Part shown: positions 55,410-64,000 of the stretch, piece by piece
Layout of the letters: the number at the start of each line of letters is the position of its first letter
How positions within the stretch are numbered: the first letter of the stretch is position 1
NCBI GenBank assembly: GCA_030599585.1
Contig: JAUVNS010000001.1
Coordinates: 256,001-320,000 of the forward strand
From: Promethearchaeota archaeon
GTDB taxonomy: Archaea; Asgardarchaeota; Lokiarchaeia; Sigyniarchaeales; SOKP01
Reading direction: 5' to 3'
DNA length: 64,000 bases
The notes under the pieces: model-generated
Told to the model about the DNA's origin: nothing
What the model saw: the letters and a program-made list of their open reading frames with translations, nothing else
Database searches by the model: none
Program-made: the position numbers and the translations under genes

Positions 55410-57695
55410 GTGAAATCGAAAAGTTTCTTAGATAAATGGAACTTAAACAGAAATAGGGTTTGCCTAATAATTACTTTATTCTTAATTTTTTTGTTACATA
55501 TTTCTGTAAGAGATATTTTAATAAATCCGACTGCTAATGGAAGTGTGTATGATTCACCATTAGATGTCCAGTTAAGATCTTCAAGTTTTAATGCCACTCT
55601 AACAAAATCCGTTGGAGGTGGGCCAGAGCACGTTGTCGTAGAGGATGTTAATAATGATGGATATGACGATATTATTACAGCAAACTATTGGGATGATAAT
55701 GTATCTATAATTTTATGGAATTCGAGTACAAGTGATTGGGAGGAGCACTTTACTAGATCTGTTGGAGATGGACCTAGTAGTGTTTTTATCGGTGATGCGG
55801 ATAATGATGGATTTAATGATATTATAACTGCGAATTATTGGGATGGAAATGTCTCAATTCTGTTATGGAATTCGACTTTACTTGACTGGGAAGAACCCAT
55901 AACGAAATTAGTAGGTAATGGTCCAGAAACTGCTATATTGGGTGACCTCAATAACGATGGATATAACGATATCGTTACAGCAAATAATTGGGATAATACA
56001 ATCTCTTTATTAATCTGGAATGAGAGCCTTGGTTTCTGGAACCCAGAAGTAACACAATCTGTAGGCGATGGACCTGAATGTATATTTGTTGGTGATGTCA
56101 ATAATGATGGGTTAAACGATACTGTAACTACTAATTATTCAGACGATACGATTTCGTTATTTCTATGGAATGGTAGTATAAATGCTTGGGATCCTGAAGT
56201 AATATTATCAGTTGGAAATGGTCCTGGAAGTGTTTTTATTGAAGATGCTAATAATGATGGATATGCCGATATAATTACATCAAACTATGTTGATGATACT
56301 GTTTCAATCTTAACTTGGAATAACAGCACTAAACTTTGGAATCAAGAAATCACTGCGTCAGTAGGGGATGGGCCAGAAATTGTTTTAGTTGATGATGTAA
56401 ATATCGATGGATATAATGATATTTTAACTACTAATTATGGAGATAATGACATATCTATATTGATATGGAACGTTATTTCTTCTGATTGGAATCCTCAATT
56501 CACCATCTCTGTTGGAAATAGACCGCAAAGTGGTGTTATAGCAGATTTAAACTACGATGGTTACAATGACATATTAGTTTCAAACTTCCTGGATAATAAT
56601 TTGTCCATTCTTTTATTTATGACTAATCCGATATCAGACGACACATATGAAGAAAACGATGATTTACCAACAGCCTCCTATATCACTAATGACACTCGAT
56701 ATACAAATCTGGCATATTTAGATTTGGATTACTATTATTTTAATGTTTCTAAAGACTTTCTTATTAATCCGAAAATTGAATATGATAGTTTTAGCACAGA
56801 ATTTTATTTATACTTATATAATTCTTCCTATGACCTTGTAGCAGAGAGTCGCTCAAATCAAGTTTTTCAATATTTAGCTAATAATACAGATTATTTCTAT
56901 CTAGGAATTCTCTGTAACGAATTATATACATCCTATAATCTTACCATCAGCTTATTTCCCCTTCCAGGTAATTTCTCTCTTACTTCTGATGCCGCTAATC
57001 CTGATTTAGATGGGAATTTTACATTATCGTGGAGCCATGCTGAAGATGTTACTAATTATTCAATTTATCAACATAATAGTTATATTTCGGAAATTAATGC
57101 AAGTTTAACACTGGTAATAGAGGGAATCTTTCAAAATAATTACAATTTAACCAAATACCTTAATGGAACTTATTATTTTATACTATTGGCAACCAATTTC
57201 GTTGGCTCCACTCTTTCAAATTGTATATCACTAAATATATCTATTCCAGCTCCACCCAAACCACCTGGCAATTTTTCATTATTTTCAAGTGCAGGAACCC
57301 CTGATGATGATGGAAACTTTACATTAATTTGGTCTAAATCAATTAGAGCAGAAAATTATAGCGTATATCAATATTCTAAGTTTATATCAGAAATAAATGG
57401 TAGTTTAAATTTACTGGTAAGCGGATTAACTAATAATTCACTCAACATTTTTGATTATGTTAATGGAACTTACTTTTTCATGATCGTTGCTTTTAATGAT
57501 GCGGGGGTCACATCATCAAACTGTTATTCTGTTACTGTAATGATTCCCCAAAAAAATGACCCAGAGGTGATTCCAACAATTAAGATTTTTGGTTACAATT
57601 TTTGGTTTATAATTTTAATTATTGTATCATTTTATATTGCTTTAATTATTAAATTAATAACTAAGAAAGATATACACTATATTGTTCTAAATTAA
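55410..57695 (+). CDS. FG-GAP/VCBS repeat (beta-propeller) surface protein with PPC-like and fibronectin-like domains and a Loki-CTERM-like tail
   Basis: Seven repeats of VGxGP...DxNNDGYxDIxTxN; DDTYEEND; duplicated PGNFSL...DGNFTL domain; IFGYNFW-TM-KK tail. Confidence 0.85.
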   Translation: MKSKSFLDKWNLNRNRVCLIITLFLIFLLHISVRDILINPTANGSVYDSPLDVQLRSSSFNATLTKSVGGGPEHVVVEDVNNDGYDDIITANYWDDNVSIILWNSSTSDWEEHFTRSVGDGPSSVFIGDADNDGFNDIITANYWDGNVSILLWNSTLLDWEEPITKLVGNGPETAILGDLNNDGYNDIVTANNWDNTISLLIWNESLGFWNPEVTQSVGDGPECIFVGDVNNDGLNDTVTTNYSDDTISLFLWNGSINAWDPEVILSVGNGPGSVFIEDANNDGYADIITSNYVDDTVSILTWNNSTKLWNQEITASVGDGPEIVLVDDVNIDGYNDILTTNYGDNDISILIWNVISSDWNPQFTISVGNRPQSGVIADLNYDGYNDILVSNFLDNNLSILLFMTNPISDDTYEENDDLPTASYITNDTRYTNLAYLDLDYYYFNVSKDFLINPKIEYDSFSTEFYLYLYNSSYDLVAESRSNQVFQYLANNTDYFYLGILCNELYTSYNLTISLFPLPGNFSLTSDAANPDLDGNFTLSWSHAEDVTNYSIYQHNSYISEINASLTLVIEGIFQNNYNLTKYLNGTYYFILLATNFVGSTLSNCISLNISIPAPPKPPGNFSLFSSAGTPDDDGNFTLIWSKSIRAENYSVYQYSKFISEINGSLNLLVSGLTNNSLNIFDYVNGTYFFMIVAFNDAGVTSSNCYSVTVMIPQKNDPEVIPTIKIFGYNFWFIILIIVSFYIALIIKLITKKDIHYIVLN

Positions 57696-57740: not shown

Positions 57741-58382
57741 TTAGTTATCTTTAGTGGTGATTAGTGAATTTTTTAAATTCTCTCTAAATTGTTTAATACG
57801 ATCTAATTCTTTCAATTGAATCTCAGTATTCTCGGGTAAATTTTCAGTATGCAAATTTAATTCAAAATCAATGCTAAAGCTAGTACAAAACTGTTTTAAT
57901 TTTGATATAATTAATTCCATATTCTCTTTTCGAAAACGCAATAAAAATATTCTTAAGTCTTGTGAATCCCTTTCAGTTGTCACTTTTACCACGTAATTAT
58001 GTTTAAATTTATAAGAATTGAAATATTTTTCATTAGAAATATCTACTTTTTTAATTTCAAACCATAATAATTTTAAATAAACTTGGTTTTGAAGTAAAAT
58101 TTTTATTTCTTTGGCTGTTATAAAACATTTTACATAATAAATTGGAGTGTTGCGATTAAGATATTTTTTTATGGTGTAATATCCCATTATTAATAATGTA
58201 ATAGTTACGAAAAAGAAAAGAAGAAAACCAAATGTATTAACTTCTTGGTAAAAAATGATTACCAAAGTGATTATTACAATGATAGGCAAAATGAATGGGA
58301 TTGTAGTAAACAACAGATCAATTATAAATTCTCTTTTATAGTGGTCTTCCACTTCAAATAGTTCTTCATTCAAATTATTCAT
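57741..58382 (-). CDS. Hypothetical 2-TM protein with a PH-like domain
   Basis: ORF track. Confidence 0.6.
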   Translation of the reverse strand: MNNLNEELFEVEDHYKREFIIDLLFTTIPFILPIIVIITLVIIFYQEVNTFGFLLFFFVTITLLIMGYYTIKKYLNRNTPIYYVKCFITAKEIKILLQNQVYLKLLWFEIKKVDISNEKYFNSYKFKHNYVVKVTTERDSQDLRIFLLRFRKENMELIISKLKQFCTSFSIDFELNLHTENLPENTEIQLKELDRIKQFRENLKNSLITTKDN

Positions 58383-58428: not shown

Positions 58429-61400
58429 TTAAGGTTGATTATATATCATTAAAATTCTCCATATAAATATACCGATCATTCCCAGGAAAAAGCTTACTTT
58501 ATACCATAGGTCTAATTGAGAACTGCGCTCATCTAGATCTGGATTAAGGACTATTGCTATAACTCCCGTGACTATACCAACAATTCCCAAAGATGCGCCA
58601 ATATCGCCAAAAAATTCCAAGGGATTTATGTTATTAATGTCTGTACCAATTATACCCAATAGCGGTCCTATAAGATCTAATACTAGCCCTCCAACAAAAA
58701 AAAACGCTATAAGGTTTTCAATTTGTTTAGGGATTTTTCCAGATAGCCCTCCGAATATCAAAGAAGATATAAAAAGCATACCAGCAACAATAAAACTACC
58801 CACAGCTAAACCGAAAAAGTATGAGTCGGGATCGGTCTGTGGAGTATCAAAAATCGCCGTTAAAAAGCCACAAATCAATGCAATTACACTAAAAGCAATC
58901 GCTACACGTATTAAGCGCATTGCTAATTTGTTTTGTGGAGTTGCTGGTTTCATCGCAAACGCACTTAAAGCATCAACATTCATCCCTATAGCAATTAAAT
59001 CAAATGCTAATAAAACTCCAGAACTAAATGACTCAAAATCAAATCCTTGGGGATATTCAACAATATCTAAACCTGATGGAGGTTGAATTAGTAATGAAGT
59101 CTTCGGAGTTTCGCCAGTTTGTTCATAGTCTGAGGATTCTGGGTTTGGATCTTCATTTGTTTCAAATGTTATAATGTCAATCACGGTATCTTCCATTGAA
59201 TCTGTATCGGTTTTAAAGAAATTACTAGATACCTCAAAACTCAAATCATTACAAATAATTGAAAAAGTTAGAGAGGGTATATATAAATCTAAAAATGATA
59301 CATAGTCTAATCCAATGGAATATCCAAAGTAAAAGTTGAAATAATCATTTTGTGCTGTAATTGAGTTTATCGATATCTGCGGTTCAATACCTAGGATATT
59401 GCTTAATAATAAAACGGCAGGTAATAATATTAAGATCATAGGGATCATTAGTATCAAAAGCAATGCAAACATTAGATAAATGAATACTAAAATAACTGCT
59501 TTAAGAATTGCTTCTACCGCAGCAAGAATAGTTTGTGTTATAGCTTCCATCAAATTCATTCCAATTTCCATTATCCACTCAAATAATGCTACGAAGAATT
59601 CTCCAATTGCTACTAAAACATCAATAATAAATTGGATTATCTCCACGATTATTTGAATAAAATTTTGCCACGGCGTTCTCGGCCACACCCCAACTTCGCT
59701 GTTTTGAAGGTCTCCCATATTTAATGGTATTAACTCTAGAATATCTGATGCTACACCTAAGCTTTCTGCGACGTAATCGTTAGTATATCCATAAATAATA
59801 CCTTCGGTCTCATTCGCACTCGTTACAGCAAGAAGCAGAAGATCATATGCGTCTTCAGCGTTTAGTGTTTTAGCGATAACGCATTCCACATTAGGACTGA
59901 TAGAATCCTTTAATTCTTCCCTATTGATTCCTGATACATTTGCACCTTTTATACAAGAGGGTACATCATACCATTTGGAGTCAGAGACAATACCAAATTC
60001 ATCTACGGATGTTTCAATAATTCTATGAAGTTTGCTATTAGTAAAAACTGATGTAGGAATCAATATTGCATTTATTCCTGCAACAAAGTAATCATTTGTT
60101 CCAGAATTAACATCTAACAACACTACAGTCATTTTTTCAATAGCGGAATAATGTCCATTATAGAATGTTCCATTTTCATATACAGCTACCGTGTTGACTC
60201 TTGGAATACCTTTAGTTTCAATACTTATATTAATAAAATTGCTACCACTATAGATAAATTTCTCTTGTGTGTTCATTTCACCGTCTTTCATGAAATCGTG
60301 ATTAATAACTCCATCTACATGAGGTAACCATCCTAATAAGTAAAACTTCCAAAGTTCGGCTTTAATACTTATATCGGTATCTCCATCATCTACATCAAAA
60401 TAGTATTCGTCGTCAAATTTTGCAATCGTATTAACAGATCCTATTGTAAATGGCTTTAAACCGGGATAAGGAACACAGAATCTCGTACAAATTGTATAAG
60501 ATCTCCATCTACACCTAAGTGCCCACCAGCATATTTTACCTAACCACGTACTTGCACATTTTTTAATCCAATAACAGTCCAACCAAGGAATAGTAATACA
60601 CGAAGTCCAACAATACCAGTAAATCCAAGGTAAATATACAATTATGGGTCTATTTCCATCACTAGCAACCTCAGTGGGTGTAGCTACCTCCCATTTATGT
60701 TCGGGATCAGCTTCAACCTCTAAGGTAACCTGTAAGGTCGGATTAAATATTTGAAAAATATCATCGTATTTTGCTGTGTTCACTCTTACCATTACAATAA
60801 GGTTGTGGAGTGGATCTGCGTCTGCCCAATCTTCAACACCGTCTCCGTCGGTATCTCTTGAATTAGGGTTCCAACCCATATCAATCTCATATTTATCATT
60901 GATAGTATCACCATCTGTGTCTCTCTTAGCAGGATTAGTAATCCATCCATTATTTTCTTCTGGATTTACTTCTACGCCATCTAAAATTCCATCGTTATCT
61001 GTGTCTGCAGCTCGAGGATTAAGATATTTTGTAAAAGCTAATGCGTATTCTTCTAGAAGACAATCCATGGAACTATGAATTTTCAGCTTCCATTCGCCAC
61101 CAAATGTTTTTCCACTGTTTTCCACAATTTGTTTTATGTCTGAAACATTTACATAATATCTCTGGTTTGACGCTTGCTTTTCAAATAATAATTCGCTTTG
61201 CAGAAATAATTGGATAGTTAGATCAACAGTATTTACTCCCTCACCAACAGATATAGAGGTTGTAAGCCCTGCTTGAATTATTCTCTTAGTTCTCTCAGTA
61301 GACAGGATAAATGTGTTCCAACCGGTTGATAATTTCTTTCTTTCTTTTATCTCTTTTGTAACTGAATATACTTCTTGCCCATCTAACAAAAGGTCACCAT

Positions 61401-64000
61401 CAGAGTCAGCAACTAAAGGAAGAGTAATGTACCCATCTTGACCGGGATAAACTTCTTCACTGTCTGATAAGCCATCTTCATCCGAATCTTTCTTATTGGG
61501 ATCAGTACCAATTTCTCTTTCTTTTGAATCAGATAATCCGTCACCATCTGCGTCTACTTTCCAGGGATACAAGTCTTCTAAATCATCAACTCCATCATTA
61601 TCACTATCTTTATTTCTGGGGTCCGTACCATTCACATATTCAGAGTAATCGCTCACTCCGTCAAAATCTGTGTCAAATTTCAGAGGATCTGAATCTACAG
61701 CAAAAATCTTTGTCACGTATACATCTGGGTAATTGACTGGATCTTCATAATAATCTATTGTTAGTTCCCAGCCAAATATTTCGCAACTATCAGTTAAATT
61801 GTCATTGTCGGTATCATTTGACAAAGGATCTGTCCCATAATAAAACTCACCCTTTATTCCATATTTATACCCATCAGGAAGGCCATCCGCATCAGTGTCT
61901 GCATTTAACGGATCTGTTCCATAAATATACTCTTCATACCAATCAGTTAGTAAATCACCGTCACAATCAGAATCATCTGGCGATGTACCCAACATTGCTT
62001 CAATTTCGTCAGTAATACCATCCCCATCGGAATCTAGGACAACTACAATCTCAAATTGAGCCATTCCTCTTTTGCCTACATCGTCATACGCTTCAACTAT
62101 ACACTTATATGTAGACGAGATTTCGTACTTAAAATTGATAGTTGAACTGTGTTCTGTAATTGAAGTTGTTCCATTAAATGTCCAATTATAGAATATATTA
62201 CTAGAATCCATGAAAGAATCGAGTGTATAGGCATTAAGTGATATTTCTCCTGGTGGACCGTATATGTATTTACTTGAAGTTGTTACAGTTGGAGTTATTC
62301 CCTCAATAATGAAATCTAAATCAATCGTGGTCGTGTCTCCGTCCATATCAGATACTGTTAAATTACCTGTGTAGTCTCCATCATTTAGACAAATAGACGG
62401 CTTGTTTCCGTATAAAATCTCTCCATTAACATCCCAAATAAAATCTAAGCCCCACTCATCTGCAATACTATCAAAGACTGCCATATCTAAGTTAATTACG
62501 GTTCCTTCCAGGCCTTCAAATCCGTAGGGCCCTTCTATAAGTGGAGGTTCATTGGTGACATTCATGATTATCATGGTGCTATTAAATACACCATTATCGT
62601 CAAAGACAAAAAGAGTCAAATTGTAAAATCCAGACTCTGCCCATACATGTCCCCTAAGAGAAGAATCGCATTGTTCGCCCCAGAAAGGAATAAAATCTAA
62701 GTCATAATAAGTGTAACCATCTCCAAAATCCCAGTAAAACCTAAGTTCATCTAGATCAGAGTCGGAATCACTAAACGACGAAGATTCATTTAGACGTACA
62801 TATTGATCTTCAAGAATATTTGGATAGATATTCTTAAGAGTTATTTCAGGGACGCGATTAAAGATTTCTATTAAAGTTCCAGTTTTAGATGTGGCATCAC
62901 CATCACTAGCAGTAATTGTTATAAGATATACCCCTTCATTTTCATAGGTGTGAAATATTTCAGCATCCCCAGAAGCAGTTTCCATAGGTGAACCATCGCC
63001 AAAATTCCATTCCACATTTAAAGTCGCATCGTTATCAAAATCGAATAAATCTGCAAACATCGGTACGATTTCATCCTCATATGAAGAACCATAGGCATAT
63101 ATAAAAGCGTCTGGTGCAAAGTTTATAAAATCAGTAGTGCCTTGAGTTGTATCAATTTTTACTGTTTTGGAGTCTTGTCCACCGTCGTCATCTTCAGCAT
63201 AAACTTCCAATATGTTTACAGCTTCAATGATGTTAATTACTTGTGCTCCATCTATATTAATCTGTTGATGCATTTCTAAGAAACTTAGATCAATAGGATA
63301 GAAGGTAAATTTTATTGGAATATTAGTCGGAAATTCATTTTCATAGTAGTCATCAATAGCTAATTTCTGAGTGAAGGTTAGATCTGAATAAATTTTACCA
63401 CTTTCATTGTACACATATGCCTCATATAAAATATGATTTGGATCATGAGGTATTGTAAGTGTTTTTGTATAAGGATACGAAATATCTGCAGCTCCAGGAA
63501 AGTCAATCTCAAGTAATAAATGCAGTTTAAAATCAGCTTCAACATGTATATCATCTTTGCTTGGATCGAATATTGACCCTTCAAAAGTAATCGGCATTTT
63601 ATACATATGATCTGCAAGTCTAGCGGTAAATTCATCAGGATCTAATTTCCATCCTGGCCAAAATTCACTGAATGAAGTACCAATTGAAAAACTGCTTCCA
63701 TCCAAAAATGAAAACACCAAATCTATGTAATAAACGCCAGGAAGAAGTTCATGAGTTCTATTGATTTTTATGACATAATCCTTAGACAAGTCAAATCGGA
63801 AAGGAATTGGTGGAGTCTCCATTCTATTTTCTCCCGATGGTTTGCCTACAAGGTAACCAACCTCAGTTTCTCCATCTCCAATAAATTCTACAGAAAAATT
63901 GCACACTTTTGGCGTTGGTGCTTTAATAAACGCTGTCACATTAACATCAATGTACGCCCAATTAAGGTTAATATGGGGTGGTACATTTTCAACGGTTATC
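58429..64000 (-). CDS. Giant surface protein (partial, more than 1850 aa): PKD domains, TSP3-like Ca-binding DxDxDG repeats, C2-like domain with a Cys/Trp hairpin, hydrophobic C-terminal helices
   Basis: WNFGDG/WDFGDG PKD motifs; many DSDGDG/DTDxDG repeats; frame remains open beyond 63939 to the window end (ITVENVPPHINLNWAYIDVNVT). Confidence 0.9.
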   Translation of the reverse strand, partial: ITVENVPPHINLNWAYIDVNVTAFIKAPTPKVCNFSVEFIGDGETEVGYLVGKPSGENRMETPPIPFRFDLSKDYVIKINRTHELLPGVYYIDLVFSFLDGSSFSIGTSFSEFWPGWKLDPDEFTARLADHMYKMPITFEGSIFDPSKDDIHVEADFKLHLLLEIDFPGAADISYPYTKTLTIPHDPNHILYEAYVYNESGKIYSDLTFTQKLAIDDYYENEFPTNIPIKFTFYPIDLSFLEMHQQINIDGAQVINIIEAVNILEVYAEDDDGGQDSKTVKIDTTQGTTDFINFAPDAFIYAYGSSYEDEIVPMFADLFDFDNDATLNVEWNFGDGSPMETASGDAEIFHTYENEGVYLITITASDGDATSKTGTLIEIFNRVPEITLKNIYPNILEDQYVRLNESSSFSDSDSDLDELRFYWDFGDGYTYYDLDFIPFWGEQCDSSLRGHVWAESGFYNLTLFVFDDNGVFNSTMIIMNVTNEPPLIEGPYGFEGLEGTVINLDMAVFDSIADEWGLDFIWDVNGEILYGNKPSICLNDGDYTGNLTVSDMDGDTTTIDLDFIIEGITPTVTTSSKYIYGPPGEISLNAYTLDSFMDSSNIFYNWTFNGTTSITEHSSTINFKYEISSTYKCIVEAYDDVGKRGMAQFEIVVVLDSDGDGITDEIEAMLGTSPDDSDCDGDLLTDWYEEYIYGTDPLNADTDADGLPDGYKYGIKGEFYYGTDPLSNDTDNDNLTDSCEIFGWELTIDYYEDPVNYPDVYVTKIFAVDSDPLKFDTDFDGVSDYSEYVNGTDPRNKDSDNDGVDDLEDLYPWKVDADGDGLSDSKEREIGTDPNKKDSDEDGLSDSEEVYPGQDGYITLPLVADSDGDLLLDGQEVYSVTKEIKERKKLSTGWNTFILSTERTKRIIQAGLTTSISVGEGVNTVDLTIQLFLQSELLFEKQASNQRYYVNVSDIKQIVENSGKTFGGEWKLKIHSSMDCLLEEYALAFTKYLNPRAADTDNDGILDGVEVNPEENNGWITNPAKRDTDGDTINDKYEIDMGWNPNSRDTDGDGVEDWADADPLHNLIVMVRVNTAKYDDIFQIFNPTLQVTLEVEADPEHKWEVATPTEVASDGNRPIIVYLPWIYWYCWTSCITIPWLDCYWIKKCASTWLGKICWWALRCRWRSYTICTRFCVPYPGLKPFTIGSVNTIAKFDDEYYFDVDDGDTDISIKAELWKFYLLGWLPHVDGVINHDFMKDGEMNTQEKFIYSGSNFINISIETKGIPRVNTVAVYENGTFYNGHYSAIEKMTVVLLDVNSGTNDYFVAGINAILIPTSVFTNSKLHRIIETSVDEFGIVSDSKWYDVPSCIKGANVSGINREELKDSISPNVECVIAKTLNAEDAYDLLLLAVTSANETEGIIYGYTNDYVAESLGVASDILELIPLNMGDLQNSEVGVWPRTPWQNFIQIIVEIIQFIIDVLVAIGEFFVALFEWIMEIGMNLMEAITQTILAAVEAILKAVILVFIYLMFALLLILMIPMILILLPAVLLLSNILGIEPQISINSITAQNDYFNFYFGYSIGLDYVSFLDLYIPSLTFSIICNDLSFEVSSNFFKTDTDSMEDTVIDIITFETNEDPNPESSDYEQTGETPKTSLLIQPPSGLDIVEYPQGFDFESFSSGVLLAFDLIAIGMNVDALSAFAMKPATPQNKLAMRLIRVAIAFSVIALICGFLTAIFDTPQTDPDSYFFGLAVGSFIVAGMLFISSLIFGGLSGKIPKQIENLIAFFFVGGLVLDLIGPLLGIIGTDINNINPLEFFGDIGASLGIVGIVTGVIAIVLNPDLDERSSQLDLWYKVSFFLGMIGIFIWRILMIYNQP

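Follow-up and report, generated by a model that had tools for sequence, protein, structure and literature searches.

A predicted cysteine-laddered aromatic arm on a C2-like domain of a giant surface protein from a Promethearchaeota archaeon

The right-hand end of a 64,000-nucleotide stretch of contig JAUVNS010000001.1 from a Promethearchaeota archaeon of the Lokiarchaeia-type Asgard group, the whole of which we call the window, carries on its minus strand the gene of a giant surface protein in which eight cysteines are spaced as a perfect palindrome. The gene extends beyond the right edge of the window, its open frame comprising 2,261 codons from window position 58429 to contig position ~321214 (contig C20), and the database gene call (P0002) is a protein of 2,222 aa that starts from the first ATG. 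All residue numbers given here are those of the window-truncated protein (P0001), and numbers preceded by q are residues of a 391-residue module that was modelled with AlphaFold2 (AF2). Behind a signal-like N-terminus, the protein is composed of PKD and bacterial-type TSP3 Ca-binding repeats, a C2-like domain with an inserted arm that contains the eight cysteines, a conserved alpha/beta domain, a helix of 94 residues, a small beta domain, an acidic linker and six transmembrane helices. Pfam recognises nothing but PKD and TSP3_bac in the whole protein, and the parts behind the C2-like domain are seen in an AF2 model of the last 595 residues (AF2 model 2), where the alpha/beta domain is well predicted, the acidic linker is disordered and the long helix joins the C2/domain-2 module to the membrane. 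Beginning at a Trp-rich WPRTPW motif, this helix changes from an amphipathic, acidic first half to a strongly hydrophobic second half, and it may be an oligomeric stalk entering the membrane. Foldseek found no PDB match at E<=0.001 for the 595-residue model, which covers domain 2, the small beta domain and the membrane part. Judging from these models, the arm-bearing domain appears to lie close to the membrane, in a module of a giant adhesin-like protein that is anchored there. The coordinates of all features are collected in Table 1.

The minus strand of window 60475-60612 translates to CWTSCITIPWLDCYWIKKCASTWLGKICWWALRCRWRSYTICTRFC, a letter-for-letter match to the earlier reading of this stretch, in which the cysteines follow the order C-3-C-7-C-5-C-8-C-5-C-7-C-3-C (residues 1130, 1134, 1142, 1148, 1157, 1163, 1171 and 1175). 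The two residue numbers add up to the same value in each of the four mirror pairs (i+j = 2305), which is the relation expected of directly opposed residues in a single antiparallel hairpin, and the offsets between cysteines of the same strand are 4, 8 and 6, every one of them even, which would place all cysteines on one face of the ribbon. The rungs predicted from the mirror pairs are C1130-C1175, C1134-C1171, C1142-C1163 and C1148-C1157. A block of 100 residues around these positions holds 8 of the 19 cysteines and 10 of the 36 tryptophans of P0001 and is the sole extracellular block in which Lys and Arg outnumber Asp and Glu (11 versus 7).

For eight cysteines in 46 residues with fixed ends, the chance of a perfect palindrome is P = 1/4,584. 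When every frame of 100 codons or more without a stop was scanned across the 4.85-Mb genome, 354 eight-cysteine windows were found, 5 of them palindromic. The exact cysteine pattern occurs once in the genome, and a relaxed version is found once more, in a CxxC-type protein. The remaining four of the five palindromic windows are double CxxC...CxxC zinc ribbons, a motif of another kind, that lie in four small proteins on contigs C20, C26, C27 and C34 of the same genome (G000); palindromy by itself is thus no sign of a ladder, and these zinc ribbons serve as useful controls. An artefact of chance or composition was rejected on the grounds of the pattern's rarity in the genome, its low probability and the seven mirror-symmetric variants that are seen in relatives.

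A word-indexed search retrieved six full-length relatives with 42-80% identity, and an exhaustive HMMER search brought the family to 91 representative clusters; the source names are only "hypothetical protein" or "PKD domain-containing protein", from metagenome-assembled genomes of Promethearchaeota, Lokiarchaeia and Helarchaeota. Most of the 91 representative matches align only over q~135 to q~390, and most of the distant relatives align just from after the arm onward, with the sandwich strands before the arm still being present. The distribution of the module is patchy, as it was found in 25 of 161 genomes of the window's class and in 3 of 41 of the same genus. Within the same genome, a paralog of 2,315 aa (contig C3:85244-92188 of G000, minus strand) has the C2-like/domain-2 module with a short, cysteine-free loop at the arm site. 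Across the family, the segment from EVATP to YYFDV varies from 14 to 90 residues in length and is three-fold richer in Trp (6.1% versus 2.1%), and in many cysteine-free relatives the loop at the arm site resembles a hydrophobic membrane loop, with examples such as LWWFII, WIFGIFIGFTWY, RYWWWDWLHVYPYY and PWKDWWMWVEVP.

The relatives with a cysteine ladder form a monophyletic clade (support 100/100) that comprises several architectures. P0003, P0005 and P0010 carry ten cysteines with the spacing 2-3-7-5-8-5-7-3-4, while the window protein and P0009 share the spacing 3-7-5-8-5-7-3, with Tyr and Gly jointly replacing the outermost pair. In P0004 and P0006 (2-11-5-8-5-11-4), it is the third and the eighth cysteine that are jointly replaced, and P0007 and P0030 (2-3-8-3-4) show a symmetric deletion of the central four cysteines together with 28 residues that keeps a tip of the sequence PWWLGGG. 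P0008 has four cysteines (5-10-5), and in P0012 a single spacing of 12 is left, with Ser and Tyr in place of the outer pair. A locus in genome G074 (L030, contig C34) has eight cysteines with another spacing, C-3-C-2-C-3-C-8-C-3-C-2-C-3-C, as well as the tip SGPWWDLD and an extra acidic segment of ~40 residues after the return strand.

The number of cysteines is even in every variant, and never is one lost without its mirror partner, which is what a cross-strand ladder predicts and four-ligand metal sites do not. Mirror symmetry holds in every variant as well, save that the outermost pair is offset by 2 versus 4, pointing to a two-residue bulge at P-Y-P. The clade tree gives little internal resolution and P0009 is apparently mosaic, and we therefore limit our claim to at least four distinct paired changes. 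In the C2/domain-2 module, P0009 shares 88% identity with the window protein, but only 49% over the last 595 residues, P0003 being closer there (59%), and the tree groups it with P0003; this points to a mosaic or recombinant history of these surface genes. Relatives with ~94-97% identity are found on cold-seep and subsurface metagenome contigs, and in these environmental variants two cysteine codons have changed synonymously (C1130 TGT>TGC and C1157 TGC>TGT), and two substitutions alter the charge (A1160E and R1173E).

The 391-residue module was modelled from an alignment of 37 rows, ~11 of them with the ladder, at a mean predicted local distance difference test score (pLDDT) of 90.8 and a predicted template modelling score of 0.75. 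In this model, DSSP assigns two very long strands, q60-97 and q100-148, that are joined by a two-residue turn at q98-99 (W1152-L1153) and continue unbroken into strands of the sandwich, and the pLDDT over the arm is 91-95 by block. The arm of the window protein contains nine Trp and eight Cys and has a net charge of +6. One face of the ribbon reads C,T,C,T,P,L,C,W,K,C on one strand and C,W,L,C,W,S,T,C,R,C on the other, and the opposite face reads W,S,I,I,W,D,Y,I,K and W,A,R,R,R,Y,I,T,F; both are mostly hydrophobic, and a cluster of Arg lies on one of them. By rough estimate, the arm would span ~6 nm from the first to the last cysteine rung and ~7-8 nm from the sandwich to the tip. We consider it very probable that the structure is a rigid, cysteine-paired, Trp/Arg-zippered two-stranded ribbon on a C2-like sandwich.

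When P1124 is counted as position 1, the residues that are unchanged across the 58-residue orthologs are P1, W2, C7, W16, D/E18, C19, W21 and C25 before the tip and T28-W-L-G-K32, C34, W35, L/I38, C40, W42, R43, C52 and P56 from the tip onward. The tip TWLGK is thus the same in all 58-residue orthologs, with PWWLGGG in its place in the short form, and the number of Trp is likewise conserved among the former (9-10). The conserved cross-strand contacts include W16-R43 (W1139-R1166), W21-L38 (W1144-L1161) and L17-W42 (L1140-W1165). Based on these alignments, the distal third and the tip, with two rungs and the Trp-Leu pair, appear to be the conserved "business end" of the arm and the proximal half a variable spacer.

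The assignment of the host domain as C2-like at the fold level is well supported. VIA-align places the C2 domain of cPLA2 (1rlw/1cjy) first with Z 13.3-13.4 and a root-mean-square deviation of 2.7-2.8 Å over 121 of 126 residues (model range 11-213), followed by dysferlin and myoferlin C2A and perforin C2 (Z 11.6-12.3) and then by otoferlin C2A and others. In a search independent of Foldseek against 48,161 representative chains, all of the top 50 rows are C2 domains, and Foldseek itself lists many C2 entries at a probability of 1.00. At the level of sequence, the identity to C2 domains is 8-16%, Pfam C2 (PF00168) gave no match, hmmscan of the 391-residue module at E<=1 yielded only a chance-level match to a phage ssDNA-binding family, and a profile search against PDB sequences returned EF-hand-type and PKD-type matches to the flanks and none to C2.

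According to DSSP, the strands of the model follow the order 12-23, 34-42, 48-52, 60-[arm]-148, 155-166, 169-181, 190-197 and 200-211, with a tight turn at 167-168. The C2 domain of cPLA2 is of topology II and binds membranes via three Ca-binding loops (PMC2133140). The strand order of the model and its sequential, full-length alignment from strand 1 onward seem to fit topology II, and the predicted eight-stranded sandwich of the host domain matches the topology II C2 domains (cPLA2 1rlw/6iej, dysferlin and myoferlin C2A, and perforin) over nearly their entire length. The arm is most likely an extension of the beta4-beta5 turn of this fold, forming a ribbon of ~58-68 residues where C2 domains have a tight turn; because beta4-beta5 and both termini lie opposite the Ca- and membrane-binding loops in topology II, it would not be one of those loops. 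A register offset of ~10 residues near the base of the arm (VPYPGLKPFTIGSVNT) is left without explanation. The acidic loop YYFDVDDGDTD, conserved throughout the family, follows the fifth strand at the site of Ca-binding loop 3 of C2 domains and is by strand order a candidate equivalent of it; 59 of 61 sequences keep the Asp of D1205, and at D1202 there is Asp in 48 and Asn in 12. An Asp with aromatic residues next to it is half-conserved in the loop that follows strand 1 (16/31), and the canonical five-Asp pattern of C2 Ca ligands is not evident in the conserved loops. A further difference is that the host domain is extracellular and archaeal, whereas C2 domains are cytosolic and eukaryotic.

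The preliminary description of this locus, which had been made from the sequence alone, is thus supported in its structural part. It had proposed that the palindromic eight-cysteine stretch folds into one long beta-hairpin with a TWLG tip, that its cysteines pair as a ladder, and that the hairpin interrupts a C2-like fold. The spacing is confirmed in the sequence, the hairpin and its turn are reproduced by AF2, the pairing agrees with the further mirror-symmetric architectures and their paired losses, and the C2-like fold emerges from the unbiased search; the predicted domain is an extended hairpin on a C2 fold and not a zinc knuckle.

Table 1. Features of the host gene in the window, all on the minus strand, and the basis of their assignment (residue numbers of P0001)
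Feature	Window position	Strand	Basis
Host gene, continuing beyond the right edge of the window	58429..63999	-	ORF (open reading frame) list, translation, Pfam, AF2 of C-terminal 595 aa
C2-like beta-sandwich, 1065-1267 (model q11-213)	60199..60807	-	VIA-align, search against 48,161 representative chains
Inserted arm, P1124-L1181, 58 residues, predicted two-stranded beta-ribbon	60457..60630	-	AF2 strands, pLDDT >90; Wimley-White sum
Eight-cysteine stretch, C1130-C1175, spacing 3-7-5-8-5-7-3	60475..60612	-	Sequence, chance 1/4,584, paired Cys loss, synonymous Cys codons
Hairpin tip T-W-L-G-K, 1151-1155	60535..60549	-	AF2 turn at W1152-L1153; alignments
Acidic loop YYFDVDDGDTD after return strand, conserved family-wide	60373..60405	-	Asp conservation, strand order
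Alpha/beta "domain 2", 1268-1440	59680..60198	-	pLDDT ~90; most widely conserved part of the family
Continuous 94-residue helix, 1443-1536	59392..59673	-	AF2 model 2 helix 182-275, pLDDT 75-88; hydropathy
Six predicted transmembrane helices, C-terminus	58441..59037	-	AF2 model 2 helices 394-592; hydropathy

As the best explanation of these features, to which we give a probability of roughly 0.42, we propose a cysteine-laddered arm that is inserted in the C2-like domain and docks to lipids with its tip. The arm would be a rigid, self-supporting aromatic structure that reverses at T-W-L-G-K, with four cross-strand cysteine pairs (five in several orthologs) keeping the ribbon in register and cross-strand contacts of Trp, Leu and Arg giving it a mini-core of its own. 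The Trp-Leu tip and the flanking Trp would then dock in the interfacial zone of a lipid bilayer, possibly that of the cell itself, which underlies the module, or that of a partner cell in contact with it, and the shorter, cysteine-free Trp/Phe loops at the same position in relatives would presumably act likewise. The docking step taken by itself is tentative and, in our judgement, somewhat more apt to be wrong than right; we favour it because of the lipid-like shorter loops, the enrichment of Trp, the invariant hydrophobic tip with its Lys and the adjoining membrane anchor. The Wimley-White interfacial sum of the window arm is -17.7 kcal/mol, which places it in the top 0.14% when all windows of 58 residues in the genome are ranked, and in the top 0.017% once transmembrane-like ones are excluded.

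Several observations weigh against this proposal. The hydrophobicity of the window arm is the extreme case of a property that is not conserved, as the Wimley-White sums of the orthologs range from -2 to -18 kcal/mol, and a ribbon that is hydrophobic on both faces is equally compatible with burial in a protein interface. The net charge is not conserved either: the preliminary description had called the hairpin basic and likened it to protegrin and tachyplesin, and this is true of the window copy, but the orthologs range from -4 to +6 and two of the environmental variants introduce Glu, so that the cationic character is specific to the lineage. The same description had invoked the membrane-binding loops of C2 domains, but the strand order would have the arm leave the sandwich at the end opposite these canonical loops. 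No structural match to fusion proteins was found, and the TM-scores to pore toxins are just 0.10-0.15. The alignment behind the AF2 model, with its few ladder-bearing rows, is shallow. With regard to the oxidation of the cysteines, neither VKOR nor DsbB was detected in the genome, its two DSBA-family ORFs have no signal peptides, and a crude set of exported-like ORFs shows no bias toward even cysteine numbers (21 even, 27 odd), like cytoplasmic ORFs; a crude genome scan also found no exported thioredoxin-like CxxC protein. The source habitat, judged from two high-share sediment runs and the cold-seep and subsurface contigs (the many runs with a share of 0.1 were not used), is anoxic sediment. 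Given the lack of VKOR and DsbB and the anoxic habitat, oxidised cystines are not assured in vivo; the pairing of cysteines across the strands is well supported by the sequence variants, and covalent disulfides in the living cell are what we infer from it.

The main rival holds that the arm makes no lipid contact and is instead a protein-protein element, either an oligomerisation arm or strut that packs on neighbouring arms or helices or a variable finger for the recognition of partner cells. We regard it as rather unlikely, yet it agrees with a ribbon that is hydrophobic and aromatic on both faces, with the position of the arm at what would be the non-membrane-binding end of the C2 fold, and with the 94-residue amphipathic-to-hydrophobic helix that follows the module and is of a kind that often forms coiled-coil stalks in oligomers. 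The hypervariable length of the arm-site loop (14-90 residues), the patchy occurrence of the gene (25/161 genomes of the class) and the apparent mosaic evolution of P0009 are, moreover, typical of recognition surfaces. On the other hand, distant relatives have shorter loops that look strikingly lipid-like, with runs of Trp, Phe and Ile unlike typical epitope loops, and the TWLGK tip does not vary, contrary to what one would expect of a recognition finger.

Far less probable is that the arms of several copies form a membrane-spanning beta-barrel like the stems of lysenin and aerolysin, as part of a contact-dependent device for pore formation, killing or fusion. This would be the strong form of the membrane-penetrating spike that the preliminary description had proposed. 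The best Foldseek E-values do belong to protomers of pore-state lysenin (5ec5, 1.7e-5), aerolysin, CDTb and Vibrio cytolysin, the arm would be long enough to reach and cross a bilayer, a helix of the oligomeric stalk type follows the module, and perforin C2 is among the C2 matches. However, the toxin protomers (E 1.7e-5 to 1e-3) are absent from the top 50 by VIA Z and match with TM-scores of 0.10-0.15 and root-mean-square deviations of 24-34 Å, and we read these Foldseek matches as reflecting only the shape of a long lone hairpin. The ribbon also lacks the alternation of polar and apolar residues, both of its faces being hydrophobic and one bearing the Arg cluster, its charge is not conserved, an arm of 30 residues suffices in some orthologs, no viral fusion protein was matched at a meaningful score, and the protein is anchored in its own membrane by at least seven helices. 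Compared with the pore-state stems of lysenin (5ec5) and aerolysin (9fml), what is shared is a very long isolated ribbon that projects from a beta-rich body; the arm differs in that it is predicted to be pre-formed and stapled rather than refolded from a pre-stem, and in that its host is itself anchored by transmembrane helices. We give slightly less credence still to the related idea that, in a native oligomer, the arms align into a beta-barrel or beta-collar that enters the bilayer, which would be an archaeal transmembrane beta-structure built on a C2-like domain and used for piercing a partner cell's membrane, tethering to it or fusing with it.

It is very improbable that the cysteines bind metal, in a zinc ribbon, a knuckle or another site, instead of forming disulfides. 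The four double zinc ribbons of this genome are likewise palindromic, an outer C-x2-C is present in orthologs, and the organism is without recognisable exported disulfide oxidases, but the window protein has no CxxC and its rungs are 4-8 residues apart on the strand, which is too distant for tetrahedral four-cysteine sites. The cysteines are, furthermore, lost by twos as mirror partners and not by fours, AF2 predicts an extended ribbon without any knuckle, and the context of PKD and TSP3 domains is extracellular. A zinc ribbon was rejected because CxxC is absent and cysteines disappear in twos, and because the true double zinc ribbons of the genome differ. The least probable reading, that the segment is excised and released as a free cationic antimicrobial hairpin peptide of the protegrin, tachyplesin or theta-defensin type, was rejected as well, since the net charge of +6, the richness in Trp and the cysteine ladder of the window arm are outweighed by strands that are continuous with a confidently folded sandwich, a length of 58 residues versus 16-25, an ortholog charge that goes down to -4, the environmental variants A1160E and R1173E, and the fact that no processing motif was seen.

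Among known systems, protegrin and tachyplesin are hairpin peptides with two rungs, and such peptides measure 16-25 residues. The single hairpin with parallel cross-strand cysteine rungs is common to the cystine-ladder peptides and the arm, which in the window protein is also rich in aromatic and basic residues, but the arm has 4-5 rungs over 58 residues and is an insertion in a folded domain of a membrane protein of >2,200 residues. It is also archaeal and its cationic charge is not conserved, and no antimicrobial activity is implied. Theta-defensins have been described as a "cyclic cystine ladder" with three rungs in 18 residues (PMC13001179). In sum, the arm works like the cystine-ladder hairpin peptides but is not a member of that group, just as its host is C2-like in fold and not in sequence.

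Two further analogies may be drawn. Trp-rich loops that insert into membranes are known from the undecapeptide of cholesterol-dependent cytolysins and the fusion loops of class II fusion proteins, and the arm resembles them in having a Trp/Leu/Gly tip that would be held by disulfides on an elongated beta structure adjoining a membrane-anchored stem; unlike class II fusion proteins, it is a single ribbon without their three-domain architecture. A search of BFVD gave no meaningful match to fusion proteins (bunyavirus glycoproteins at E ~0.08 and a probability of 0.06), and none appear in the PDB match lists. Thrombospondin type-1 repeats have "Cys-Trp-Arg layers", and designed tryptophan zippers are comparable. 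These would share with the arm a core-less, elongated beta structure with stacked Trp-Arg contacts and disulfide caps, which the W1139-R1166 pair and the row of R1162, R1164 and R1166 fit, but the arm is two-stranded and not three-stranded and lacks the WxxW register, so that this likeness is an analogy only. A limited literature search found no paper on this family or on a C2-like domain of an Asgard surface protein.

A signal-peptide-like sequence, KKREKLLIKAFGVLLTIILANVA, lies in frame ~117 bases upstream of the first ATG, beyond the end of the window on contig C20, and the open frame has no ATG, GTG or TTG before it; the protein could use a non-canonical start codon, or its start could be mis-called. 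The P0003 homolog, which is 80% identical, is called from the same internal Met. Downstream of the host gene by 46 nt and on the same strand, window 57741-58382 encodes a membrane protein of 213 aa without a Pfam family, and the adjoining protein of 761 aa (window 55410-57695, plus strand) has FG-GAP and FG-GAP_3 repeats of the integrin-alpha-type beta-propeller and is also of a surface type. A metatranscriptomic contig of 212 nt matches window 60286-60490 with 7 differences and gives a weak hint of in situ transcription of a closely related gene. In run X6, a subsurface contig joint skips window 60546-60680 (133 nt, with the first strand of the arm), but it has just 22 nt on one side and was not trusted; an artefact or DNA of another organism probably accounts for it.

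If the ladder is as predicted, with 4-5 rungs over ~58 residues, no longer cystine ladder on a single natural beta-hairpin is known to us, and since the rung pairing is backed by natural covariation in the form of a "knock-out in pairs", the arm would provide a clean model of how an isolated two-stranded ribbon can be made rigid. C2 is a classic membrane-targeting module of eukaryotes, and an externally exposed domain of an Asgard archaeon for which the PDB holds no structural relatives other than C2 domains would, if true, bear on the origin of eukaryotic membrane-binding folds. Loki-type archaea live in close cell-cell contact with partners, and to our knowledge hardly anything of their surface machinery has been characterised. 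A conserved hydrophobic finger that adjoins the membrane anchor of a giant adhesin-like protein would offer a concrete and expressible target for hypotheses on how these archaea contact membranes or partners.

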